From Alistipes sp. (GTDB lineage Bacteria; Bacteroidota; Bacteroidia; Bacteroidales; Rikenellaceae): 64,000 nt of DNA. The stretch covers positions 1,643-65,642 of the forward strand of contig JAFSBY010000042.1 of the NCBI GenBank assembly GCA_017437045.1. Direction: 5' to 3'. Below, one piece after another: positions 427 to 9,164 of this stretch; the stretch's first letter is position 1, and the number at the start of each line of letters is the position of its first letter. A program made the position numbers and the translations under genes. Below the pieces are notes generated by a model. It was not told where the DNA came from and searched no databases. It saw nothing but the letters and a program-made list of their open reading frames with translations.

Positions 427-1821
427 TTATGCGATTTTCTGACCGAATTTGCGAAGTTGGCTAACCAGCAGCAGCGCCGTGACCACCGCAGCGAGCAGGT
501 CGGAGGCCGGAAGTGCACACCACACTCCCCAGCTGGCCTCTAACTCCATCTTGTCGAAGAGGTAGGGTAGCAACAACAGTGCCGGCATCAGGAAGAGCAG
601 TTGGCGCGAGAGCGAGAGGAAGATCGCCTTCGAGGCCATGCCGAGGCTCTGGAAGAAGTTCGTGGCCACCATCTGGAAACCCACGAGCGGGAACATCAGG
701 AACGAGAGGCGCATACCCGTCACCGAGAGGGCGATCAGCTCCTGGTCGTGGGTGAAGAGGCTGATGACGAGCTGCGGAGCGGCCTCACCGAGCAGGAAGG
801 CGGCCAGCGAGACGGCCGTAGCTCCGTAGATCGTCAGGCGCGTGACACGCAGCACGCGGTCGTATTGGCGGGCTCCGTAGTTGTAGCCGGCAATGGGTTG
901 CATGCCCTGGTTGAGCCCCATGATGATCATCACGAAGAGGAAGGCTACGCGGTTCGTGATGCCGTAGGCACCGATCATCAGGTCGCCACCGTGCTCCTTG
1001 AAGCTGCGGTTGATCAGGATCGTGATCAGGCAGGCGGCCAAATTCATCAGGAAGGGGGCCATGCCGATGGCTAAGATGTGGTGCACGATGGTGCGTTTGA
1101 GGCGGTAGATGCCCCGACGGAAGTGCAGCAACTCGTGGGGATTGGAGAGCAGACGCAACTGCCACGTCAGGGCGATGATCTGTGCCAAAATAGTCGCTAT
1201 GGCGGCGCCACGAATGCCCCAATCGAACCAGAAGATGAAGATCGGGTCGAGCACGGCATTGAGCAGCACGGTGATGATCGTGGCGTTCATCGACTTGCGC
1301 GGGTGGCCTGCGGCACGCAGTACGGCGTTCAGTCCTAAATACATGTGGGTGACGACATTGCCCGCGAGGATGATCTGCATGTAGTCGCGTGCATAGCCGA
1401 TCGTGGCCTCGCTGGCCCCGAAGAAGTAGAGCACGGGGTCGAGGAAGAGGAGCATCAGGACGGCAAAGGCAACGCCGATGATCGTATTGAGTATCAGCAC
1501 GTTGCCCAACACGTTTTGGGCTGTGGCATAGTCGCGTTGTCCCAAGCGCATCGAGATCAGCGTAGCTGCACCTACACCCACCATGGCACCAAAGGCGGCC
1601 GAGAGGTTCATCAGCGGGAAGGTCAGCGCCAAGCCCGAGATAGCCAACGGTCCGACTCCCTGGCCGATGAAGATGCTGTCGACCATATTATATAAGGAGG
1701 TCGCGGTCATCGCAATGATGGCCGGAACGGCATACTGCACGAGCAGTTTGCGGATGCGCTCGGTGCCTAAGGCTAACGCAGCGGGTTTGGTAGCTGCGTG
1801 GGTGGGTGTTGTTGCTGCCAT
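427..1821 (-). CDS. MATE family efflux transporter
   Basis: Two-fold repeated MATE architecture (LYNMVDSIFIGQ, LNAVLDPIFIF..GIRGAAIAT, QPIAGYNYGA). Start placed at ATG 1821; the longer ORF overlaps cysS. Confidence 0.92.
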   Translation of the reverse strand: MAATTPTHAATKPAALALGTERIRKLLVQYAVPAIIAMTATSLYNMVDSIFIGQGVGPLAISGLALTFPLMNLSAAFGAMVGVGAATLISMRLGQRDYATAQNVLGNVLILNTIIGVAFAVLMLLFLDPVLYFFGASEATIGYARDYMQIILAGNVVTHMYLGLNAVLRAAGHPRKSMNATIITVLLNAVLDPIFIFWFDWGIRGAAIATILAQIIALTWQLRLLSNPHELLHFRRGIYRLKRTIVHHILAIGMAPFLMNLAACLITILINRSFKEHGGDLMIGAYGITNRVAFLFVMIIMGLNQGMQPIAGYNYGARQYDRVLRVTRLTIYGATAVSLAAFLLGEAAPQLVISLFTHDQELIALSVTGMRLSFLMFPLVGFQMVATNFFQSLGMASKAIFLSLSRQLLFLMPALLLLPYLFDKMELEASWGVWCALPASDLLAAVVTALLLVSQLRKFGQKIA

Positions 1822-1833
1822 CTGGTTGTCGCT

Positions 1834-1862
1834 TGTCACACTGTCACATGTCACAGGGGGCT
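1834..1862. repeat. Heptamer tandem repeat (TGTCACA)x3 followed by GGGGGC
   Basis: tgtcaca-c-tgtcaca-tgtcaca-gggggc in the cysS-MATE gap. Confidence 0.7.
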
Positions 1863-1888
1863 TCCGAGGAGGATCGGTGGGGTGGGCG

Positions 1889-3361
1889 TTACTCCAACTC
1901 CCAGTCGGTGCCGTCCTTGCGGTCCTTGACGCGGATGCCGGCAGCAGCCAAGCCGTCGCGGATGCGATCCGAAGCGGCCCAATCCTTCGCAGCACGTGCC
2001 TTCAGTCGCTCCTCGAGGAGCATCTCCACGAGCGGGGTTACGCGGTCGCGGCCCGTCGTGGCGGTCGTGCGCTCATCTTGCAGACCCAACACCTCAAAGG
2101 CGTAGCGGTGGATGGTGGCCTTCAGGGCCTCCAGATCCTCGGCCGTGAAGCTCTCCTTGCCCTCGATAGCCGAGTTGATCGTGCGTACCCAGTCGAAGAG
2201 GGCCGAGATGACCATCGGGGAGTTCAGGTCGTCGGCCATAGCCTCGGCACAACGACGCTCCAACTCCGCAGGATTGACCGTCGAGGTGGCGGCAGGCTTG
2301 ATCTTACCCAGCGCCTCGATGCCCTTCATGAGGCGATCCAACCCCTTCTCGGCAGCCTGCAGGGCCTCGTTCGAGAAGTCGAGCGTCGAGCGGTAGTGGG
2401 CTTGCAGGACGAAGAAACGGATCGTCATCGGCGTGTAGGCCTGTGCCAACATCTTGTGCGAACCGGTGAAGAGCTCCTCGAGGGTGATGAAGTTACCGAG
2501 CGATTTGCCCATCTTCTGGCCGTTGATCGTGATCATGTTGTTGTGCACCCAGTAGCGGGCCGAGTCGTGACCCAGCGCGGCGGTCGATTGGGCGATCTCG
2601 CACTCGTGGTGGGGGAACATGAGGTCCATGCCGCCACCGTGGATGTCGAAACGCTCACCCAAATACTTCGTGCTCATGGCTGAACACTCCATGTGCCAGC
2701 CCGGGAAACCATCGCTCCAGGGCGAGGGCCAACGCATGATGTGCTCGGGCGAGGCCTTCTTCCAGAGGGCGAAGTCGAACGAGTTGTGTTTGTCGCTTTG
2801 GCCGTCCAACTCGCGCGTGCCGAGGACGATATCGTCGAGGTTGCGACCCGACAGACAGCCGTAGTGGTGTTGTTGGTTGTATTTCTCGACGTCGAAATAG
2901 ACCGAGCCGTTCGAGATGTAGGCGAAGCCCTCCTCGAGGATGCGCTTGACGAACTCGATCTGCTCGATGATGTGGCCCGAGGCGTGGGGCTCGATCGAGG
3001 GCGAGAGGACACCCAGCTGCGTCATGGCGTTGCGGTAACGCTCCGTGTAGTAGTGGGCTACCTCCATCGGCTCGAGTTGCTCGAGGCGGGCCTTCTTGGC
3101 GATTTTATCCTCGCCCTCATCGGCATCCTGCTCGAGGTGGCCGACATCGGTGATGTTGCGCACGTAGCGCACTTTGTAGCCCAACGAACGGAGGTAACGG
3201 AACAAGAGGTCGAACGTTACGGCCGGGCGTGCATGGCCCAAATGGGGATCACCATAGACCGTGGGGCCGCAGACATACATGCCGACACGACCTTCGGTCA
3301 GCGGCTCAAAGACCTCCTTGCGGCGCGAGAGGGTGTTGTAGAGCGAAAATTGGGGTTCCAT
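1889..3361 (-). CDS. cysS: Cysteine--tRNA ligase
   Basis: [13 protein letters not shown] (HIGH), [31 protein letters not shown] (KMSKS). Confidence 0.98.
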
Positions 3362-3450
3362 AACCTTCTGTATAGCTAATTTTAGAGTTTGCTTGTATCT
3401 AATTCTGCAAAGATACAATCTTTTTTTGGGAATATGCGCCGAGCAGGCAT

Positions 3451-3572
3451 TAGAAATTCAAAATTTAGAATTCAAAATTTAGAATTATTTTTCTTGAATT
3501 ACAAATTACATTACATTACAGGGGGTGCACCCTGTAATGTAATGTAATTTGTAATTCTAAATTTTGATTTTG
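3451..3572. repeat. Family A palindrome copy 1 with flanking TTAGAATT/CAAAAT tandem repeats
   Basis: Perfect 28-bp arms 3496-3523 / 3530-3557 (gaattacaaattacattacattacaggg). Outer caaaatttagaatt repeats 3451-3487 are mirrored at 3553-3567. Confidence 0.9.
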
Positions 3573-3615
3573 CAAAAAGCTGCGCAATAAGATTGGATGT
3601 TCCGCGTTTATTGCG

Positions 3616-3623
3616 TACTTTTG
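3616..3623 (+). promoter_or_regulatory. Bacteroidetes sigma-A -7 box (TACTTTTG)
   Basis: Matches TAnnTTTG, 26 bp upstream of ATG 3650. Confidence 0.6.
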
Positions 3624-3649
3624 CACCTTGGAAAATAAGCCACTTACCA

Positions 3650-6600
3650 ATGATACACAATTTTCGCACCTGGAATAACTTAGTCGGCTGGGGCGTCTTT
3701 GCCATAGCTGCCGTGGTCTATCTGCTGACCATCGAGCCCGTAGCCAGCCTTTGGGACTGCTCGGAGTTTATCGCCACCTCCTATCGCCTCGAGGTCGGCC
3801 ACCCGCCCGGAGCACCGCTCTTCATGATGCTGGCCCGCATCGCCTCGCTCTTTGCCCCCTCGGAGGAGTATGTCGCTATGGCCGTCAATGCGATGAATGC
3901 CCTGGCGAGTGCCTTCTGCATCCTCTTCCTCTTCTGGACGATCACCCACTTGGGGCGTCGCCTCCTTACGCGTGGCGGAGCACCCCTGACCCCGGCAGGC
4001 AGCTGGGCTGCGATCGGTGCCGGAGCTGTCGGTGCGCTGGCCTATACCTTTACGGACACCTTCTGGTTCTCGGCCGTCGAGGGGGAGGTCTATGCCCTCT
4101 CGTCGATGTTTACGGCCTTGGTCGTGTGGCTCATGCTGCGGTGGGAGGATCAGGCCGATGAGCCCCATGCCTGGCGATGGATTGTCTTGATCGCCTACTT
4201 GATGGGCCTCTCGATCGGTGTGCACATCCTGAACCTGCTGACGATCCCCGCCTTGGTCTTCATCTACTACTTCCGCACGACGGAGCGGGTGACGCTCGGC
4301 GGATTGGTTCTCTCGACCCTCGTGGCGGGTATTATCCTGCTGGTGATCAACGGCATAATCATCCCCTATACGGTCTATTTCGGGGCGATGCTCGACCTGT
4401 TCTGCGTCAATACCCTGGGGCTGCCCGTGAACTTCGGCATGGCCCTCTTTGCGCTGCTGCTCATCGGCGGATTCGGCTACGGAGCGTGGCTGATGCACCG
4501 CAAGGGCAAGGTGCTCTGGAACGTGATCCTGCTCTCGACGACGATGATCCTGGTGGGCTTCTCGTCCTATGCCACGGTGACGATTCGTGCGGCTGCCAAC
4601 CCACCCATGAACTCGAACAACCCGAACAACCCCCACGCCCTGCTCTCGTTCCTGAACCGCGACCAATATGGCAATCGTCCGCTCCTCTACGGAGCCTACT
4701 ACTCGGCACCTCCCGAGGGGTATGTCGAGAAGACGAATTGGTATTTGGACGAGGATGGGAAGTATAAGCAGGGGACGACGATCTCGGGCTATACGTTCGA
4801 TCCGAAATTCATGCACCTGTTCCCCCGCATGTGGAACTACAGCAAGTCGGAGCGCGACTACAAGCAGTGGTCGGCCTACCGCACCAAGAGCGAGGTGGTC
4901 CGCGACCGCGAGGGCAACATCGTGCGCGACGAGCGGGGCAATCCGCTGCGCGAGGAGGTGTTAGACTATGGTCAGAAGGTGCTCTACGACGATGGCTACG
5001 AGGTGCAGACGATCATCGAGCCAACCTTTAGGGAGAACCTGAATTTCTTCTTCACCTACCAGCTCAACTACATGTATTGGCGCTATTTCTTGTGGAATTT
5101 CGTCGGTCGCCAGAGCGATATTCAGCCCACCTCATCGACCATCACCGATGGCAATTGGATGTCGGGCATTCGGGCCGTGGACGAGCTCTACCTGGGCCCG
5201 CAGGAGAACCTGCCGCGCGAGATCGCCGAGAACAAGGGGCGCAACCACTACTATTTCCTCCCCTTCCTGCTCGGTTTGGTGGGTCTGCTCTATCAGCTCA
5301 ACCGCGACCAGCGCAACTTCTCGATCGTCATGTGGCTCTTCATCATGACCGGTGTGGCGTTGGTGGTCTACTTCAACTCCTCGCCCGGTGAGCCGCGCGA
5401 ACGCGACTATGTCTATGCCGGATCGTTCTACGCCTTCTCAATTTGGTTGGGGCTGGGTGTGCTGGCCTTCTACGAGCTCTTTGCCTGGATCACCCGCCGC
5501 AAGAGCTGTGCCGCAGCGGCTGTGGCGACGCTGCTCTGCCTGGGTGTGCCGACCCTCTTGGCGGCCGAGAACTGGGACGACCACGACCGCTCGGGTCGCT
5601 ACATGGCTCGCGACATCGGCTGGAACTACCTGCAATCGACCCTGCCGAACTCGATCATCCTGAACTATGGCGACAACGACACCTTCCCGCTGTGGAACAA
5701 CCAGGAGGTCTACAACGTGCGTCCCGATGTGCGCATCATGAACACCTCCTACTTGGGTGGCGAATGGTACATCGACGAGATGAAGACCGCAGCCAACGAT
5801 GCGGCCGGAGTGCCCTTCACGCTGCCGAAGTATAAATATACCTATATGAACGATTGGGTGCCGATCAAGGAGGTGATCGACCGTCCGGTCAATATCAAGG
5901 AGGTGATGTCGTTCATCCGTAGCGACGACCGTGCCTCGCAGATCAAGTTGGTCGATGGCTCCTACACGGACTACCTGCCGACGCGCAAGATTGCCTTGCC
6001 GGTGGACAAGGAGAATGCCATCCGCTCGGGCATCGTCAAGGAGGAGGATCGCTCGCTGATGGTCGATACGGTCTATATGGAGCTGCGCGGCTCGTCGATC
6101 GACAAGAATAAGCTGATGATCCTCGACATGCTGTCGAACTTCGATTGGAAACGCCCGATCTACCTCACGCAGGTCTATATCCTGCAAGATCTGGGGCTGA
6201 TGGACTACCTGCAATTCGACGGCTACGCCTATCGTTTGGTGCCGATTCGCACCCCCAGCGAGAGTGCTTGGGACATCGGACGCATCGACCCGGATTATGC
6301 GGCTCCGCTCCTGCGCGATACGTTCCGCTACGGCAATTTGAGCGACCCGGAGGTCTATGCCGACCACTTCGTGCAGTACAATTTAGGGGCCTCGGGGGCA
6401 CGTCAAGCCTTTGCGCGGGTGGCCAAATCGTTGTTGGCCGAGGAGCGCGTGGCTGAGGCGGTCGAACTGCTCGATTTAGGTCTGGAGCGTCTGCCCGTGG
6501 AGCAGATTCGCTTTACGGATGCCAATACCTATCCCTTCTTAGAGGGGTACTATGCTGCCGGCATGATGGGCGACGAGACGGCCAACGAAAAGGGCGATCG

Positions 6601-6856
6601 ACTGATGATGGCCTACCTGAACAACCTGATCGAGTACATCGAGTACTACCTGCAGTTCGAGGGTGCACAGGCCGAGATGGTGGATCGTGCGCTCAGCCGC
6701 CGCTTCGAGGAGCTGGAGGAGGCCTATCTGCTCGCCTCGTATGCGCGTCGTTACGACCTGCTGCGCTATATGAACGACTACTACCGCACGTTGGGTGTCG
6801 AGGAGAAGGACCTGATGCCGATCCCCGGCGAACAGACCGAGGCACTGGATCGGTAG
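3650..6856 (+). CDS. DUF2723 domain membrane protein (TMEM260-like GT-C fold glycosyltransferase)
   Basis: SLWDCSEFIATSYRLEVGHPPGAPLF, FWFSAVEGEVYA, ERDYVYAGS, YGDNDTFPLW motifs; many hydrophobic segments; about 1070 aa. Confidence 0.88.
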   Translation: MIHNFRTWNNLVGWGVFAIAAVVYLLTIEPVASLWDCSEFIATSYRLEVGHPPGAPLFMMLARIASLFAPSEEYVAMAVNAMNALASAFCILFLFWTITHLGRRLLTRGGAPLTPAGSWAAIGAGAVGALAYTFTDTFWFSAVEGEVYALSSMFTALVVWLMLRWEDQADEPHAWRWIVLIAYLMGLSIGVHILNLLTIPALVFIYYFRTTERVTLGGLVLSTLVAGIILLVINGIIIPYTVYFGAMLDLFCVNTLGLPVNFGMALFALLLIGGFGYGAWLMHRKGKVLWNVILLSTTMILVGFSSYATVTIRAAANPPMNSNNPNNPHALLSFLNRDQYGNRPLLYGAYYSAPPEGYVEKTNWYLDEDGKYKQGTTISGYTFDPKFMHLFPRMWNYSKSERDYKQWSAYRTKSEVVRDREGNIVRDERGNPLREEVLDYGQKVLYDDGYEVQTIIEPTFRENLNFFFTYQLNYMYWRYFLWNFVGRQSDIQPTSSTITDGNWMSGIRAVDELYLGPQENLPREIAENKGRNHYYFLPFLLGLVGLLYQLNRDQRNFSIVMWLFIMTGVALVVYFNSSPGEPRERDYVYAGSFYAFSIWLGLGVLAFYELFAWITRRKSCAAAAVATLLCLGVPTLLAAENWDDHDRSGRYMARDIGWNYLQSTLPNSIILNYGDNDTFPLWNNQEVYNVRPDVRIMNTSYLGGEWYIDEMKTAANDAAGVPFTLPKYKYTYMNDWVPIKEVIDRPVNIKEVMSFIRSDDRASQIKLVDGSYTDYLPTRKIALPVDKENAIRSGIVKEEDRSLMVDTVYMELRGSSIDKNKLMILDMLSNFDWKRPIYLTQVYILQDLGLMDYLQFDGYAYRLVPIRTPSESAWDIGRIDPDYAAPLLRDTFRYGNLSDPEVYADHFVQYNLGASGARQAFARVAKSLLAEERVAEAVELLDLGLERLPVEQIRFTDANTYPFLEGYYAAGMMGDETANEKGDRLMMAYLNNLIEYIEYYLQFEGAQAEMVDRALSRRFEELEEAYLLASYARRYDLLRYMNDYYRTLGVEEKDLMPIPGEQTEALDR

Positions 6857-6876
6857 AGGGTCGTTAGCCCCCCCCG

Positions 6877-7318
6877 ATTACAAATTACATTACATTACAG
6901 GCCATGCCCCCTGTAATGTAATGTAATTAGTAATTGGAGGCGAAGCCTCCAATTACTAATACCTACAATCCCTCCTAAATCCTCCCTTTGATAAGGGAGG
7001 ACTTGAGGGGTAGTTCTAACGACCGTCTGTGCTGGGGTTCTAATAACCGCTGATACAGAGGGAGTTATAAGAATAATAAGAATAATAAGAATAATGTGAA
7101 TGCAGACGCTTATAGGAATAGGACTTTAGGCAGCCTTCACATAATTCCTATAACTCTTATTTTATTCCTATAATTCACTCTAAATTCTCAATTTAGGCGA
7201 ATCCAATTCATTTTGAATTCTAAATTCTAAATTTTGAATTTGGCCTTCGCAGCCTCCCAATTACAAATTACATTACATTACAGGGGGCATGGCCTGTAAT
7301 GTAATGTAATTTGTAATT
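6877..7318. repeat. Composite nested inverted-repeat element (family A copies 2 and 3 in opposite orientation, GCGAAGC hairpin, family C hairpin, 9-mer and 7-mer tandem repeats)
   Basis: Palindromes 6877-6934 and 7259-7318 with reverse-complementary cores ggccatgccccc / gggggcatggcc; 14-bp hairpin 6928-6958; (ATAATAAGA)n near 7068-7094. Confidence 0.9.
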
Positions 7319-7349
7319 CGATATGTCGATTGTAAGCATGACCTTCGGG

Positions 7350-9137
7350 TCACTGCTGTATTTTTACCAACTGCTCGCGGTAGGCATTCAGGATGCGCGA
7401 TTTGGAGATAAAGCCCAGATAGCGATTCTCCTTGTCCACGACGGGCAACATCCAGGTGCGCCCATCCTCAAATTTGGGCAGAATCGACTGTATGGCCTCG
7501 TGCTGCAAGATGCGATCGGGCGGCTGAATCATGTAGCTCATGATCGTAGTCCCATACTTCTCGCGCTTGAACATATCCTTGCGCAGGTCGTCTAACTGCA
7601 CGACACCTAACAGATGGCCGAAATCGTCGATCACGGGGAAGATATTGCGCCGTGCCGTGGCGATGATGTTGATCAGATCGCCCAAGGTCATGTGCTCGCG
7701 GATGCGGATAAAGTCGGTCTCCATCAGCTCGTCGAGCTTCAGGAAGACGAACACCGACTGATCCTTGTCGTGGGTGAGCAGCTCGCCTCGCTGCCGCAAC
7801 TGCTTGGTGTAGATCGAGTCGGGATCGAGCCAATAGTTTAGGGCGAAGGAGATGCAGGCGGTGATCATCAGCGGGATGAAGAGTTCGTAGCCGTTCGAGA
7901 GCTCGGCAATCAGGAAGATCGAGGTCAGCGGGGCCTTCATCACACCGGTCATCACACCGGCCATGCCGACCAACGTGAAGGAGGCAATCGGCACATCGAG
8001 GTCGAACAACGCATTGCAAATCAACGCCAACGCTGCGCCCGTGAAGGCACCGACGAAGAGCGACGGGGCAAACGTACCACCCACACCACCGGCGGCATTG
8101 GTCGTCGCCATGGCGATCACCTTGAAGAACATCGTGGCGATGACGAAGAGGATCACGACCCACTCGATGTGGCTGAAGGCGTAGAAGAGCGAGTTGTCGA
8201 AGAGCGGCCCCGTGCGCCCCTGCATCAACTCCGTAAAGGCCTCATAACCTTCGCCATAGAGGGGCGGGAAGATGAAGATCAGCAGGCCGAGCACGGCACC
8301 TCCGATGAGCCATTTGTGGTATTGCTTGGTCTGTCGCTTGAAGAACCGCCCCACGCGGGCATTCATCGTCGTGAAGTACCAGGCCATCAAACCGCAGCAG
8401 ATGCCCAGCAGGATGAAGAGCGGGATCTGCCACAACTCGAACCCATCCTCGGGGCTGAGTTTCACGGCGATAATGGGGTCGAAGCCGCGCAGGATAAAGG
8501 CCATGGTCGTGGCCGTGACGGTGGCAATGAGCAGCGGGATGATCGACGTGGCCGTGATGTCCAACATCAGGATTTCGAGCACGAAGACCAAGCCGGTGAT
8601 CGGGGCCTTGAAGATGGCCGCCACCGCTGCACCCGCACCGCAGCAGAGCAGCAGGGTGGAGTATTTGTAGTTCAGACGGGCCAATCGACCGACATTCGAG
8701 CCGATGGCTGCACCCGTGAGCACGATCGGGGCCTCGGGACCCACCGAACCACCAAAACCGATCGTCGTGGCACCGCCTACGACCGAGGTCCAGGTGTTGT
8801 GCGGAGCGATCTGCGAGTTGCCCCGCGACATGGCGTAGAGCACGCGCGTAACCCCTTCCGAGATGTTATCGCGCACGATGTAGCGCACGAAGAGCGTGGC
8901 CAGGATGATACCGATGACGGGGTAGATCAGGTAGAGAAATTGGGCCTCATCGACCGAGAACCACCGGGTCAGCCCCTCCTCGATGGCGTGCAGCAGCAAC
9001 TCAAAGAGGAAGGTCCCCACACCGGCCAGCAGACCGACAATGACGGCCAGCACCATCAGCATCTGGCGGGTCGAAAGACGCCGCGTCAGACGCAGAAAGT
9101 AGGCGTAGATGCGATCGGTAAAGCCGGAGAGGGTCAT
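7350..9137 (-). CDS. CLC chloride channel/transporter with C-terminal CBS pair
   Basis: GGSVGPEAP (gating Glu motif), AAIFKAPITG, GGTFAPSL, and two CBS-like C-terminal domains. Confidence 0.93.
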   Translation of the reverse strand: MTLSGFTDRIYAYFLRLTRRLSTRQMLMVLAVIVGLLAGVGTFLFELLLHAIEEGLTRWFSVDEAQFLYLIYPVIGIILATLFVRYIVRDNISEGVTRVLYAMSRGNSQIAPHNTWTSVVGGATTIGFGGSVGPEAPIVLTGAAIGSNVGRLARLNYKYSTLLLCCGAGAAVAAIFKAPITGLVFVLEILMLDITATSIIPLLIATVTATTMAFILRGFDPIIAVKLSPEDGFELWQIPLFILLGICCGLMAWYFTTMNARVGRFFKRQTKQYHKWLIGGAVLGLLIFIFPPLYGEGYEAFTELMQGRTGPLFDNSLFYAFSHIEWVVILFVIATMFFKVIAMATTNAAGGVGGTFAPSLFVGAFTGAALALICNALFDLDVPIASFTLVGMAGVMTGVMKAPLTSIFLIAELSNGYELFIPLMITACISFALNYWLDPDSIYTKQLRQRGELLTHDKDQSVFVFLKLDELMETDFIRIREHMTLGDLINIIATARRNIFPVIDDFGHLLGVVQLDDLRKDMFKREKYGTTIMSYMIQPPDRILQHEAIQSILPKFEDGRTWMLPVVDKENRYLGFISKSRILNAYREQLVKIQQ

Positions 9138-9142
9138 GGAGC

Positions 9143-9164
9143 GAATTTAGAATTTAGAATTTAA
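9143..9164. repeat. Heptamer tandem repeat (AATTTAG)n between trpS stop and clc start
   Basis: gaatttagaatttagaatttaa; same unit as at 3451-3487 and 7216-7241. Confidence 0.6.

Follow-up and report, generated by a model that had tools for sequence, protein, structure and literature searches.

In Neisseria intergenic mosaic elements (NIME), inverted repeats named dRS3, which are 20 bp in length (ATTCCCN8GGGAAT), flank repeat sequence (RS) elements, 611 of which are present in strain FAM18 (PMC1797815). NIME arrays occupy syntenic intergenic positions, vary between strains in the number and length of their units, and have been proposed as recombination substrates; no dedicated transposase is known for them (PMC1797815). 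The repetitive extragenic palindrome (REP), or palindromic unit (PU), of the bacterial interspersed mosaic elements (BIME) is an imperfect palindrome of 20-40 bp, one end of which carries an unpaired tag, GTAG or CGTC (PMC3733652). Porphyromonas gingivalis carries 19 copies of the BrickBuilt MITE (miniature inverted-repeat transposable element), in which a leader and a tail flank a 23-nt minisatellite and the terminal inverted repeats (TIRs) are small (PMC4596501). In the present study, we analyzed a 64,000-nt stretch of DNA (the window) from contig C40 of an Alistipes metagenome-assembled genome (MAG; G000, 2.22 Mb in 45 contigs, 55% GC, 92.8% complete) and the family of ATTAC-armed palindromes in it, named PalA. 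Our results suggest that PalA is probably a palindromic boundary module of a non-coding intergenic mosaic, which is similar to NIME and BIME and changes by recombination, gene conversion, and slippage. By analogy, its role resembles that of dRS3 in NIME (PMC1797815) or of PU/REP in BIME (PMC3733652). The PalA mosaic is restricted to one pair of Alistipes species.

As in NIME, a short inverted-repeat unit brackets many families of AT-richer repeat cassettes of 50-150 bp. However, dRS3 is far more abundant per genome, whereas PalA is about 60 bp long, has ATTAC arms, and is present in nine copies in three clusters. Furthermore, no link of PalA to a phage or to an IS110-type recombinase was found, inspection detected no sequence similarity to dRS3 or to the enterobacterial PU/REP, and the organism belongs to another phylum. 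Because homology to dRS3 is lacking, PalA is to be regarded as an analogue, not a member, of the NIME and BIME units. With REP, BIME, and REPIN (hairpin-forming REP doublets), PalA shares the features of extragenic palindromes in mosaics, which are often located downstream of genes, form hairpins, and are hot spots of rearrangement (PMC3733652). However, none of the hallmarks of a REP/RAYT system (tag, RAYT gene, size, and high genome-wide copy number) was found: PalA has no GTAG/CGTC tag, the gene for the REP-associated tyrosine transposase (RAYT) was not detected in six genomes, the length is 58-64 bp with AT-rich arms instead of 20-40 bp and GC-rich, and the copies number nine instead of hundreds. 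Judged from its description, BrickBuilt is similar in that it is a species-restricted intergenic element of Bacteroidales with inverted-repeat ends, a short tandem array, and strain variants. In the PalA system, however, it is the tandem units of 5-9 nt that make up the hairpin arms, and recombination among the modules is free. The modules of BOX elements (Streptococcus pneumoniae) have a fixed order (boxA-B-C), and in Correia elements of Neisseria the inverted repeat is fixed at 51 bp and TA is duplicated at the target; both occur in some 100 copies or more (for Correia elements, see also PMC1797815). The PalA mosaic is comparable to these short modular or inverted-repeat-bounded intergenic repeats in its long hairpins, the lack of its own transposase, and the variable number of modules, but the order and orientation of its modules vary and its copy number is very low. 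Thus placed among known systems, the PalA mosaic is real and undescribed, but not a categorically new kind of feature.

The arm of PalA is (A)ATTACAAATTACATTACATTACAG, namely ATTAC/ATTACA units, and a G/C-rich centre of 6-8 nt lies between the arms. The window has three near-identical copies of 58-64 bp with perfect arms of 26-28 nt (Table 1). Six occurrences of the 18-mer ATTACATTACATTACAGG from the arm were counted in the window and none in 100 shuffles, and single-stranded PalA folds with an energy of between -23 and -28.5 kcal/mol (z = -9 to -12). Over a length of 61 nt that takes in the asymmetric cores, GGCCATGCCCCC and GGGGGCATGGCC, copies 2 and 3 show 98% complementarity and thus are mutually inverted; they bracket 319 nt of other hairpin modules. 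Copy 2 begins 21 nt past the stop codon of the DUF2723 gene, and copy 3 ends 31 nt short of the stop codon of the convergent CLC channel gene. Copy 1 is enclosed by inverted AATTCAAAATTTAG arrays and is wrapped in inverted CAAAATTTAGAATT repeats, with one pair of arms at 3454-3479 and 3546-3571 (88%) and a second at 3469-3487 and 3552-3570 (95%). A preliminary description of the window had reported three palindromes of about 60 bp, the inverted-repeat wrapping of copy 1, its position between the divergent cysS and DUF2723 genes, and the absence of a transposase. All of these held, with the boundaries and Pfam matches given in Table 1 and with no match to any of six tested families anywhere in the assembly. 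The count of three copies, in turn, applies to the window; genome-wide, eight full copies and one degenerate copy were found, plus a diverged variant at C13:75962.

PalA is one module of a larger mosaic, not an independent element. With one exception, the copies all adjoin the same neighbour modules, so that a palindromic unit alternates with other repeat families in intergenic clusters, as in mosaic arrays. On one flank there are E arrays of 7-nt units (AATTCAA/AATTTAG) with the linker ATTATTTTTCTTG, and on the other the mini-hairpin B (GGAGGCnnnGCCTCC) is followed by hairpin C (CCTCCCTTTGATAAGGGAGG) and then by the long AT-rich hairpin D. Pairs of PalA bracket cassettes of 200-480 bp composed of these modules, whose order and orientation vary among the composites. 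The E, B, C, and D modules are also found alone; E has 83 matches at about 40 loci in the genome, compared with none in the reversed-genome control. The E arrays are true variable number tandem repeats of 7 nt. In the spacer upstream of the CLC gene, the unit counts vary by strain, and no more than a seed of 2.5 units is present in the window; in other strains, this spacer contains a composite of 310-390 bp with a half-PalA and expanded 7-nt arrays. The hypervariable units there (AATTTAG, ATTTTGA, ATTTTGC, and ATTCTAC) lie 6 nt upstream of the CLC start codon, and their number varies several-fold (window 9144-9161; L221:8680-9030; L230:8705-9075; L234:8720-9150). An indel of the E array alters the C-terminus of the upstream tRNA-synthetase-like gene (…KAYAEKKA* versus …KAYA*).

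Table 1. Repeat modules and neighbouring genes in the window
Feature	Position	Strand	Remarks
PalA copy 1	3496-3557		28-nt arms, 100% complementary; 6-nt centre GTGCAC
PalA copy 2	6877-6937		core GGCCATGCCCCC; inner arms 26 nt, perfect; 31 nt at 90%; 8-nt centre
PalA copy 3	7257-7318		core GGGGGCATGGCC; arms 26 nt, 100%; 8-nt centre
105-bp unit (E array, linker, and PalA copy 1)	3454-3558		missing as an exact indel in two conspecific MAG contigs
E array (AATTCAAAATTTAG x2, 7-nt units) and linker ATTATTTTTCTTG	3454-3495		
Right-hand E-like motif TTCTAAATTTTGATTTTG	3552-3572		half element end, half target
B mini-hairpin	6926-6960		GGAGGC GAA GCCTCC, extension ATTAGTAATT/AATTACTAAT
C module	6961-7010		hairpin CCTCCCTTTGATAAGGGAGG at 6981-7000; dispersed by itself, genus-wide
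D module	7053-7190		long imperfect AT-rich hairpin of GAATAATAA/TTATAGGAA-type units
Internal E array ATTTTGAATTCTAAATTCTAAATTTTGAATTT	7205-7242		
B' half-hairpin GGCCTTCGCAGCCTCC	7243-7258		
E seed AATTTAGAATTTAGAATT	9144-9161		in the spacer (23 bp) that precedes the CLC gene start
cysS	1889-3361	-	Pfam matches on identical products
TMEM260_N/DUF2723 protein gene	3650-6856	+	Pfam matches on identical products
CLC channel gene	7350-9137	-	

For the comparison of strains, contigs encoding exact alleles of the neighbouring genes were used as conspecific haplotypes. Around DUF2723 alleles that differ at 0-69 of 3207 nt, we found zero, one, or two PalA copies upstream and one, two, or three downstream. 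With alleles 52-69 nt (of 3207) distant from that of the window, the upstream spacer is empty (183 bp), has a solo PalA (288 bp, as in the window), or has a composite with two PalA copies (about 700 bp). The downstream spacer has two copies (the window), two copies with the whole unit reversed, or three copies, and a single copy in the sister species. Over all haplotypes with gene divergence of <=2%, spacers at the same site range from 183 to 869 bp with 0-3 PalA copies; that is, as in known mosaic arrays, the position is kept and the number and length of the units vary by strain. These structures recur in independent assemblies (L219 and L220 agree with the window, L234-L237 are concordant, and so are L239 and L240), so that one-off assembly errors do not account for them. 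Even where the genes of contigs are only 0-4 nt apart, the spacers are unlike in structure, with the caution that some of these contigs are short and begin or end in PalA.

The empty allele (L239; two NCBI MAGs) has no substitution relative to the window in 183 spacer nt and a single gap of 105 bp. The gap corresponds to window 3454-3558 (E array, linker, and PalA), and AAATT is present at both 3454-3458 and 3559-3563. Such an exact empty/filled pair with AAATT at both junctions would be expected if the 105-bp unit, or a composite, were a MITE with the E arrays as TIRs and AAATT(T) as the target with a 5-bp duplication, and if it were mobilized in trans by an unassembled transposase or by one from an unknown family. 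Inverted E arrays at the outer ends of several composites, both here (C8:24860-25590 and window 3454-3572) and in other species (L138 and L140), are consistent with this explanation, as are contig ends that fall in these repeats and the species-restricted, patchy distribution of PalA and of a sister family with GTTAC arms. Other composites terminate directly in PalA, and in a second empty/filled pair, at C8:22044, only AATT is shared, which belongs to the palindrome itself, and the flanks mismatch. However, the ends of the units gained or lost differ by site: the unit is PalA alone at C8:22044, it is E-linker-PalA at 3454, and elsewhere whole composites are concerned. Furthermore, the putative target at the empty site is itself E-like (TTAGAAATTTTGATTT), which homology-driven exchange fits equally well. 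The same right junction is filled in the sister species and in most strains, and thus the empty allele is less likely to be ancestral than to have arisen by precise loss or by replacement of the allele. The MITE explanation is also opposed by the clustering of the copies within 10 kb and by the searches for mobilizing genes. No match to Y1/RAYT (PF01797, for which control genomes gave matches), DDE_Tnp_1 (PF01609), rve (PF00665), IS110 (PF01548), or serine recombinase (PF00239) was found in the G000 assembly, and RAYT was not found in the sister genome G041 or in the repeat-rich congeners G071, G048, G092, and G016 either. A longer parent element with PalA or E ends was not found in the genome (the MAG being incomplete), plasmids, or phages. 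Taken together, we consider a MITE origin unlikely.

Variation of the same kind was observed in a second region, C8:15-27 kb of G000, where all three spacers around a MatE gene have 0-3 PalA copies depending on the strain. In L246, a 5.4-kb block of glycoside hydrolase (GH) genes, GH106-GH88-GH28, is inverted, with one junction at C8:16570, in the centre of PalA, and the other in the composite that follows the MatE gene. L243 (JGI) and L251 (ENA), which have different MatE alleles, both join the post-MatE composite to C40:5198, which is window 3556 on the cysS side of copy 1; copy 1 is the junction of these inter-locus joins, and the junction recurs in two data sets. L222 and L223 join composites of the DUF2723 gene to a GTTAC-armed site at C8:154.45 kb. 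A gene-bearing segment of 2.5 kb between two composites (G000 C13:81462-83958) corresponds to one composite of 397 bp in the sister species. This segment carries a 274-aa lipoprotein-like open reading frame (ORF) and a fragment that, judged by its N-terminal Rossmann-type motif alone, is short-chain-dehydrogenase-like. Cassettes were also found to be inverted between the sister genomes G000 and G041 at the orthologous C8:24860-25590, and between the window and L239 downstream of the DUF2723 gene, where 278-718 aligns to 710-279 and the flanks are collinear. The outcomes among strains thus comprise collapse to a solo PalA, triplication, inverted cassettes, cassette replacement, inversion of the 5.4-kb block, and joins of distant loci, and the breakpoints of the PalA-linked rearrangements lie inside PalA. 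In the 5' leader of the MatE gene (C8:23393-23471), different hairpins are found at the same position, about 20 nt downstream of a promoter -7 box (TACCTTTG): an E-armed hairpin in G000, PalA in the sister species, and nothing in some strains.

The presence of cassettes and of the 5.4-kb block in both orientations among strains, as well as the reverse-complement asymmetric cores of copies 2 and 3, would also fit a target of a site-specific tyrosine recombinase (lox, FRT, or dif-like), pairs of which form invertons or shufflons with programmed switching. In fact, G000 has four tyrosine recombinase genes. However, these are located on contigs C38, C17, and C27, none near the PalA clusters, and the cores vary freely between copies and between strains at one site, unlike the core of a crossover site. 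In the cassette comparisons, the inverted alleles are 85-87% identical, not identical, and opposite orientations were found only between strains or species. Many half-palindromes and run-length bulges occur, and a scan limited to sigma-70-type promoters detected no promoter-like cargo in the cassettes. Programmed switching is thus highly unlikely in our view. A simple inverton was likewise rejected as the main explanation, on the grounds of the identity of the inverted alleles and their differing cores.

The behaviour of the arms was assessed from 47 distinct PalA-like sequences, a few of which are half-copies or diverged variants. In almost all full copies, the inner arms (17 + 17 nt) do not vary, and the centre is variable (for example, GGGGGTGCCCCC, GGGGGCACCCCC, GGGGTGCACCCC, GGCCATGCCCCC, and GGGGGCATGGCC). 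In the outer arms, the length of the A/T runs changes on one arm only, and half-palindromes occur. The bases beside the arms vary by copy (cttg, cccg, tccc, ctcc, and so on) and form no constant tag. With the copies of G000 as the starting point, five of the six orthologous pairs with the sister species have no substitution in 170 inner-arm nt. In the sixth (C8:16570), both arms in the sister species have switched to the subtype ATTACACCCATTACAG. Since this subtype is present at other loci, the swap points to conversion between copies rather than to independent compensatory mutation. Selection for structure was considered for these changes in both arms and was dropped, because a gene-conversion swap is simpler.

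The conserved arms and the very stable RNA folds may instead indicate a selected RNA element, that is, a stable 3'-UTR (untranslated region) stem-loop, bidirectional terminator, or exonuclease block, dispersed by re-use of the hairpin. Several copies begin 16-50 nt past stop codons, three of the six loci of PalA proper lie between convergent genes, and the PalA-bearing spacers have no other terminator-like site. However, no U-tract follows the stem, a terminator scan gave no terminator-like site in 3300-7500, and the ordinary terminators of the genome are different, consisting of an A-tract, a GGGCTGTCCAAC hairpin, and a T-tract. Copy 1, which is located between divergent promoters, can be dispensed with in two MAGs, another site is in a 5' leader, and strains tolerate 0-3 copies per site. 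Furthermore, selection for structure alone would let the arms covary and would not fix one sequence. A primary function in RNA therefore seems very improbable, and any role of PalA as an RNA 3' hairpin would be secondary and is putative. A census of hairpins in G000 also showed that the longest stems are those of PalA and that the ordinary terminators look different. Many of the bidirectional terminators in G000 share the stem GGGCTGTCCAAC…GTTGGACAGCCC with A/T-tract flanks (for example, at C38:185979, C43:81897, and C2:145876), and are themselves a dispersed hairpin family.

Each PalA copy, being a palindrome, is a direct as well as an inverted repeat of any other, and thus recombination between two of them can delete the intervening sequence with a solo copy left, invert it, duplicate it, or translocate it. 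The outcomes among strains, taken with the uniformity of the arms, the swap of subtypes, the local clustering of copies, and the failure to find a mobilizing gene, favour a recombining mosaic repeat. Presumably, host recombination, gene conversion, and template switching, acting between copies and AT-rich E-like seeds, change the family and probably account for its spread. Replication slippage of the 5-9-nt units and hairpin-promoted deletion would contribute, gene conversion would keep the PalA arms uniform, and no dedicated enzyme would be needed.

Several points weigh against this explanation. Recombination was deduced wholly from the comparison of assemblies, with no event observed directly, and short-read metagenome assemblers can mis-join at repeats, so that L222, L223, L227, and L246 could be chimeras. 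The inverted cassette of L239 is 85% identical to that of the window and the flanks are 96-97% identical; it thus represents an old event or a replacement of the allele and no recent flip. The test of arm conservation (P ~4e-5 for the invariance of the inner arms at a genome-wide divergence of 5.8%) is biased because the copies were found by arm similarity (ascertainment bias), and the conservation could be explained by selection as well as by gene conversion. A transposon-like insertion would account equally well for the direct repeat AAATT and for the inverted E ends, and the initial arrival of PalA at its sites is left unexplained. Finally, the absence of a transposase is weak evidence in a genome that is 92.8% complete in 45 contigs, since insertion sequences (IS) are often unassembled.

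The preliminary description had proposed a non-autonomous mobile or repeat-synthesizing system with an unidentified partner enzyme. The repeat is indeed dispersed, non-coding, non-autonomous, and unlike classical REPs. Nor is it fixed, since conspecific strains have empty, solo, and multi-copy sites. No Rfam family and no plasmid or phage record matches it, and the literature searches found no similar repeat described. As for mobility, deletion, inversion, duplication, and exchange between copies were seen, but no demonstrable new transposition. The proposed partner found no candidate: the assembly has no match to RAYT, as above, or to reverse transcriptase, the 23S-IVS/Avd-like four-helix-bundle protein (PF05635), or DUF559. 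Nothing points to repeat synthesis, and the changes in unit number resemble ordinary slippage. A match to PF07282 was rejected as a TnpB partner, as it is a 492-aa Cas12f-like ORF on another contig with no PalA nearby. At this locus (C17:70338-72270), the ORF, with a Cas12f1-like_TNB domain, is followed by about four 35-nt repeats (GTGTTAATGCTTTGACTTTTAAGTGGATATCCAAC) with spacers. The locus resembles a miniature type V CRISPR system; no adaptation genes were apparent in the approximately 3 kb inspected.

In G000, the seven PalA loci, including the diverged variant, fall in three neighbourhoods of <=10 kb each, and clustering as strong was obtained in only 4 of 200,000 random placements. No PalA was detected in the 24 same-genus and 16 same-order genomes searched. 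A scan of 185,579 species representatives detected it elsewhere only in Alistipes sp. fecal_MAG_176, which has an average nucleotide identity of 94.2% with this genome over 610 kb and is thus a sister species. Against Rfam, PalA gave only sub-threshold matches to generic hairpins (miRNA precursors), taken as chance. No match was found in plasmid and phage records or, among viral contigs, in any sequence (0 matches), and full-text literature searches found no description of PalA-like or Alistipes intergenic repeats. The arm 18-mer returned 120 loci in metagenome contigs, which were rejected; all match on one strand only and none is palindromic, and the contexts inspected are (ATTAC)n-type microsatellites.

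The other modules have a wider distribution. E and C were found in 76 of 120 sampled Alistipes congeners; the PalA part matched in this genome only and in none of the 120. The sister palindrome family with GTTAC arms, composed of CGTTACAAN units, has the same GGGGTGCACCCC centre as PalA; at least ten loci are present in G000, and its occurrence in the genus is patchy. In 18 other Alistipes species, the spacer that lies upstream of the DUF2723 orthologue has short-tandem-repeat and palindromic sequences of its own. Given these genus-wide modules, the sister family, and the repeat-bearing orthologous spacers, PalA is one lineage-specific instance of a genus-wide habit. It might further be speculated that Alistipes continuously creates lineage-specific palindromes with tandem-repeat arms (ATTAC units here, CGTTACAAN units in the sister family, and GGCTAA- or GTCAC-type units elsewhere), which later become portable recombination sites that reshuffle spacers and gene order. 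The cause would be hairpin-templated slippage or template switching, or a yet-unrecognized enzyme acting on hairpins. We regard this extension as quite unlikely; if it is true, such palindromes would reshuffle spacers and gene order between strains of gut bacteria.

Alistipes is an abundant gut genus, and the literature searches encountered no account of its intergenic repeats. PalA marks differences in the spacers of near-identical strains, as well as the junctions of larger inversions and inter-locus joins, without a recognizable mobilizing gene. The repeats break, and may mis-join, short-read MAG assemblies, and they are very fine strain markers. They are also candidate sites of gene-order plasticity beside genes for glycoside hydrolases, efflux, and membrane glycosyltransferase-like proteins. 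As an analogue of NIME and BIME in Bacteroidota, PalA is unusual in its microsatellite-like hairpin arms, which make it a tractable case for the birth and uniformity of repeat families.

Some further repeats were observed in G000. The arms of the GTTAC-armed family are tandem 9-mers (CGTTACAAN), and the family is abundant in G071 and present to some extent in G048. The loci in G000 are C16:42-128, 2270-2417, 2685, and 7251-7319; C8:144706, 149764, and 154450; C41:126208, 131418, and 138197; and C27:140406. The family is regionally clustered, and the ends of C8 and C41 are adjacent in the sister genome. A transposase was sought between GTTAC-armed pairs 1.5 kb apart in G071, but the interval instead appears, on reading the sequence alone, to be a two-gene regulator operon. 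The spacer between cysS and a MatE gene in the window (1787-1878; C40:3429-3520) has a G000-specific insert of 75 bp with GTCACACTGTCACATGTCACAGGGGG, an arm of GTCAC units similar to the palindrome at C34:24389. In addition, a dispersed intergenic motif (…GCGCAAGCCTTGAA[CA]T…) is present at several indel breakpoints between the sister genomes, at C13:55249, C40:47553, C43:37962, and C13:10602 of G000.

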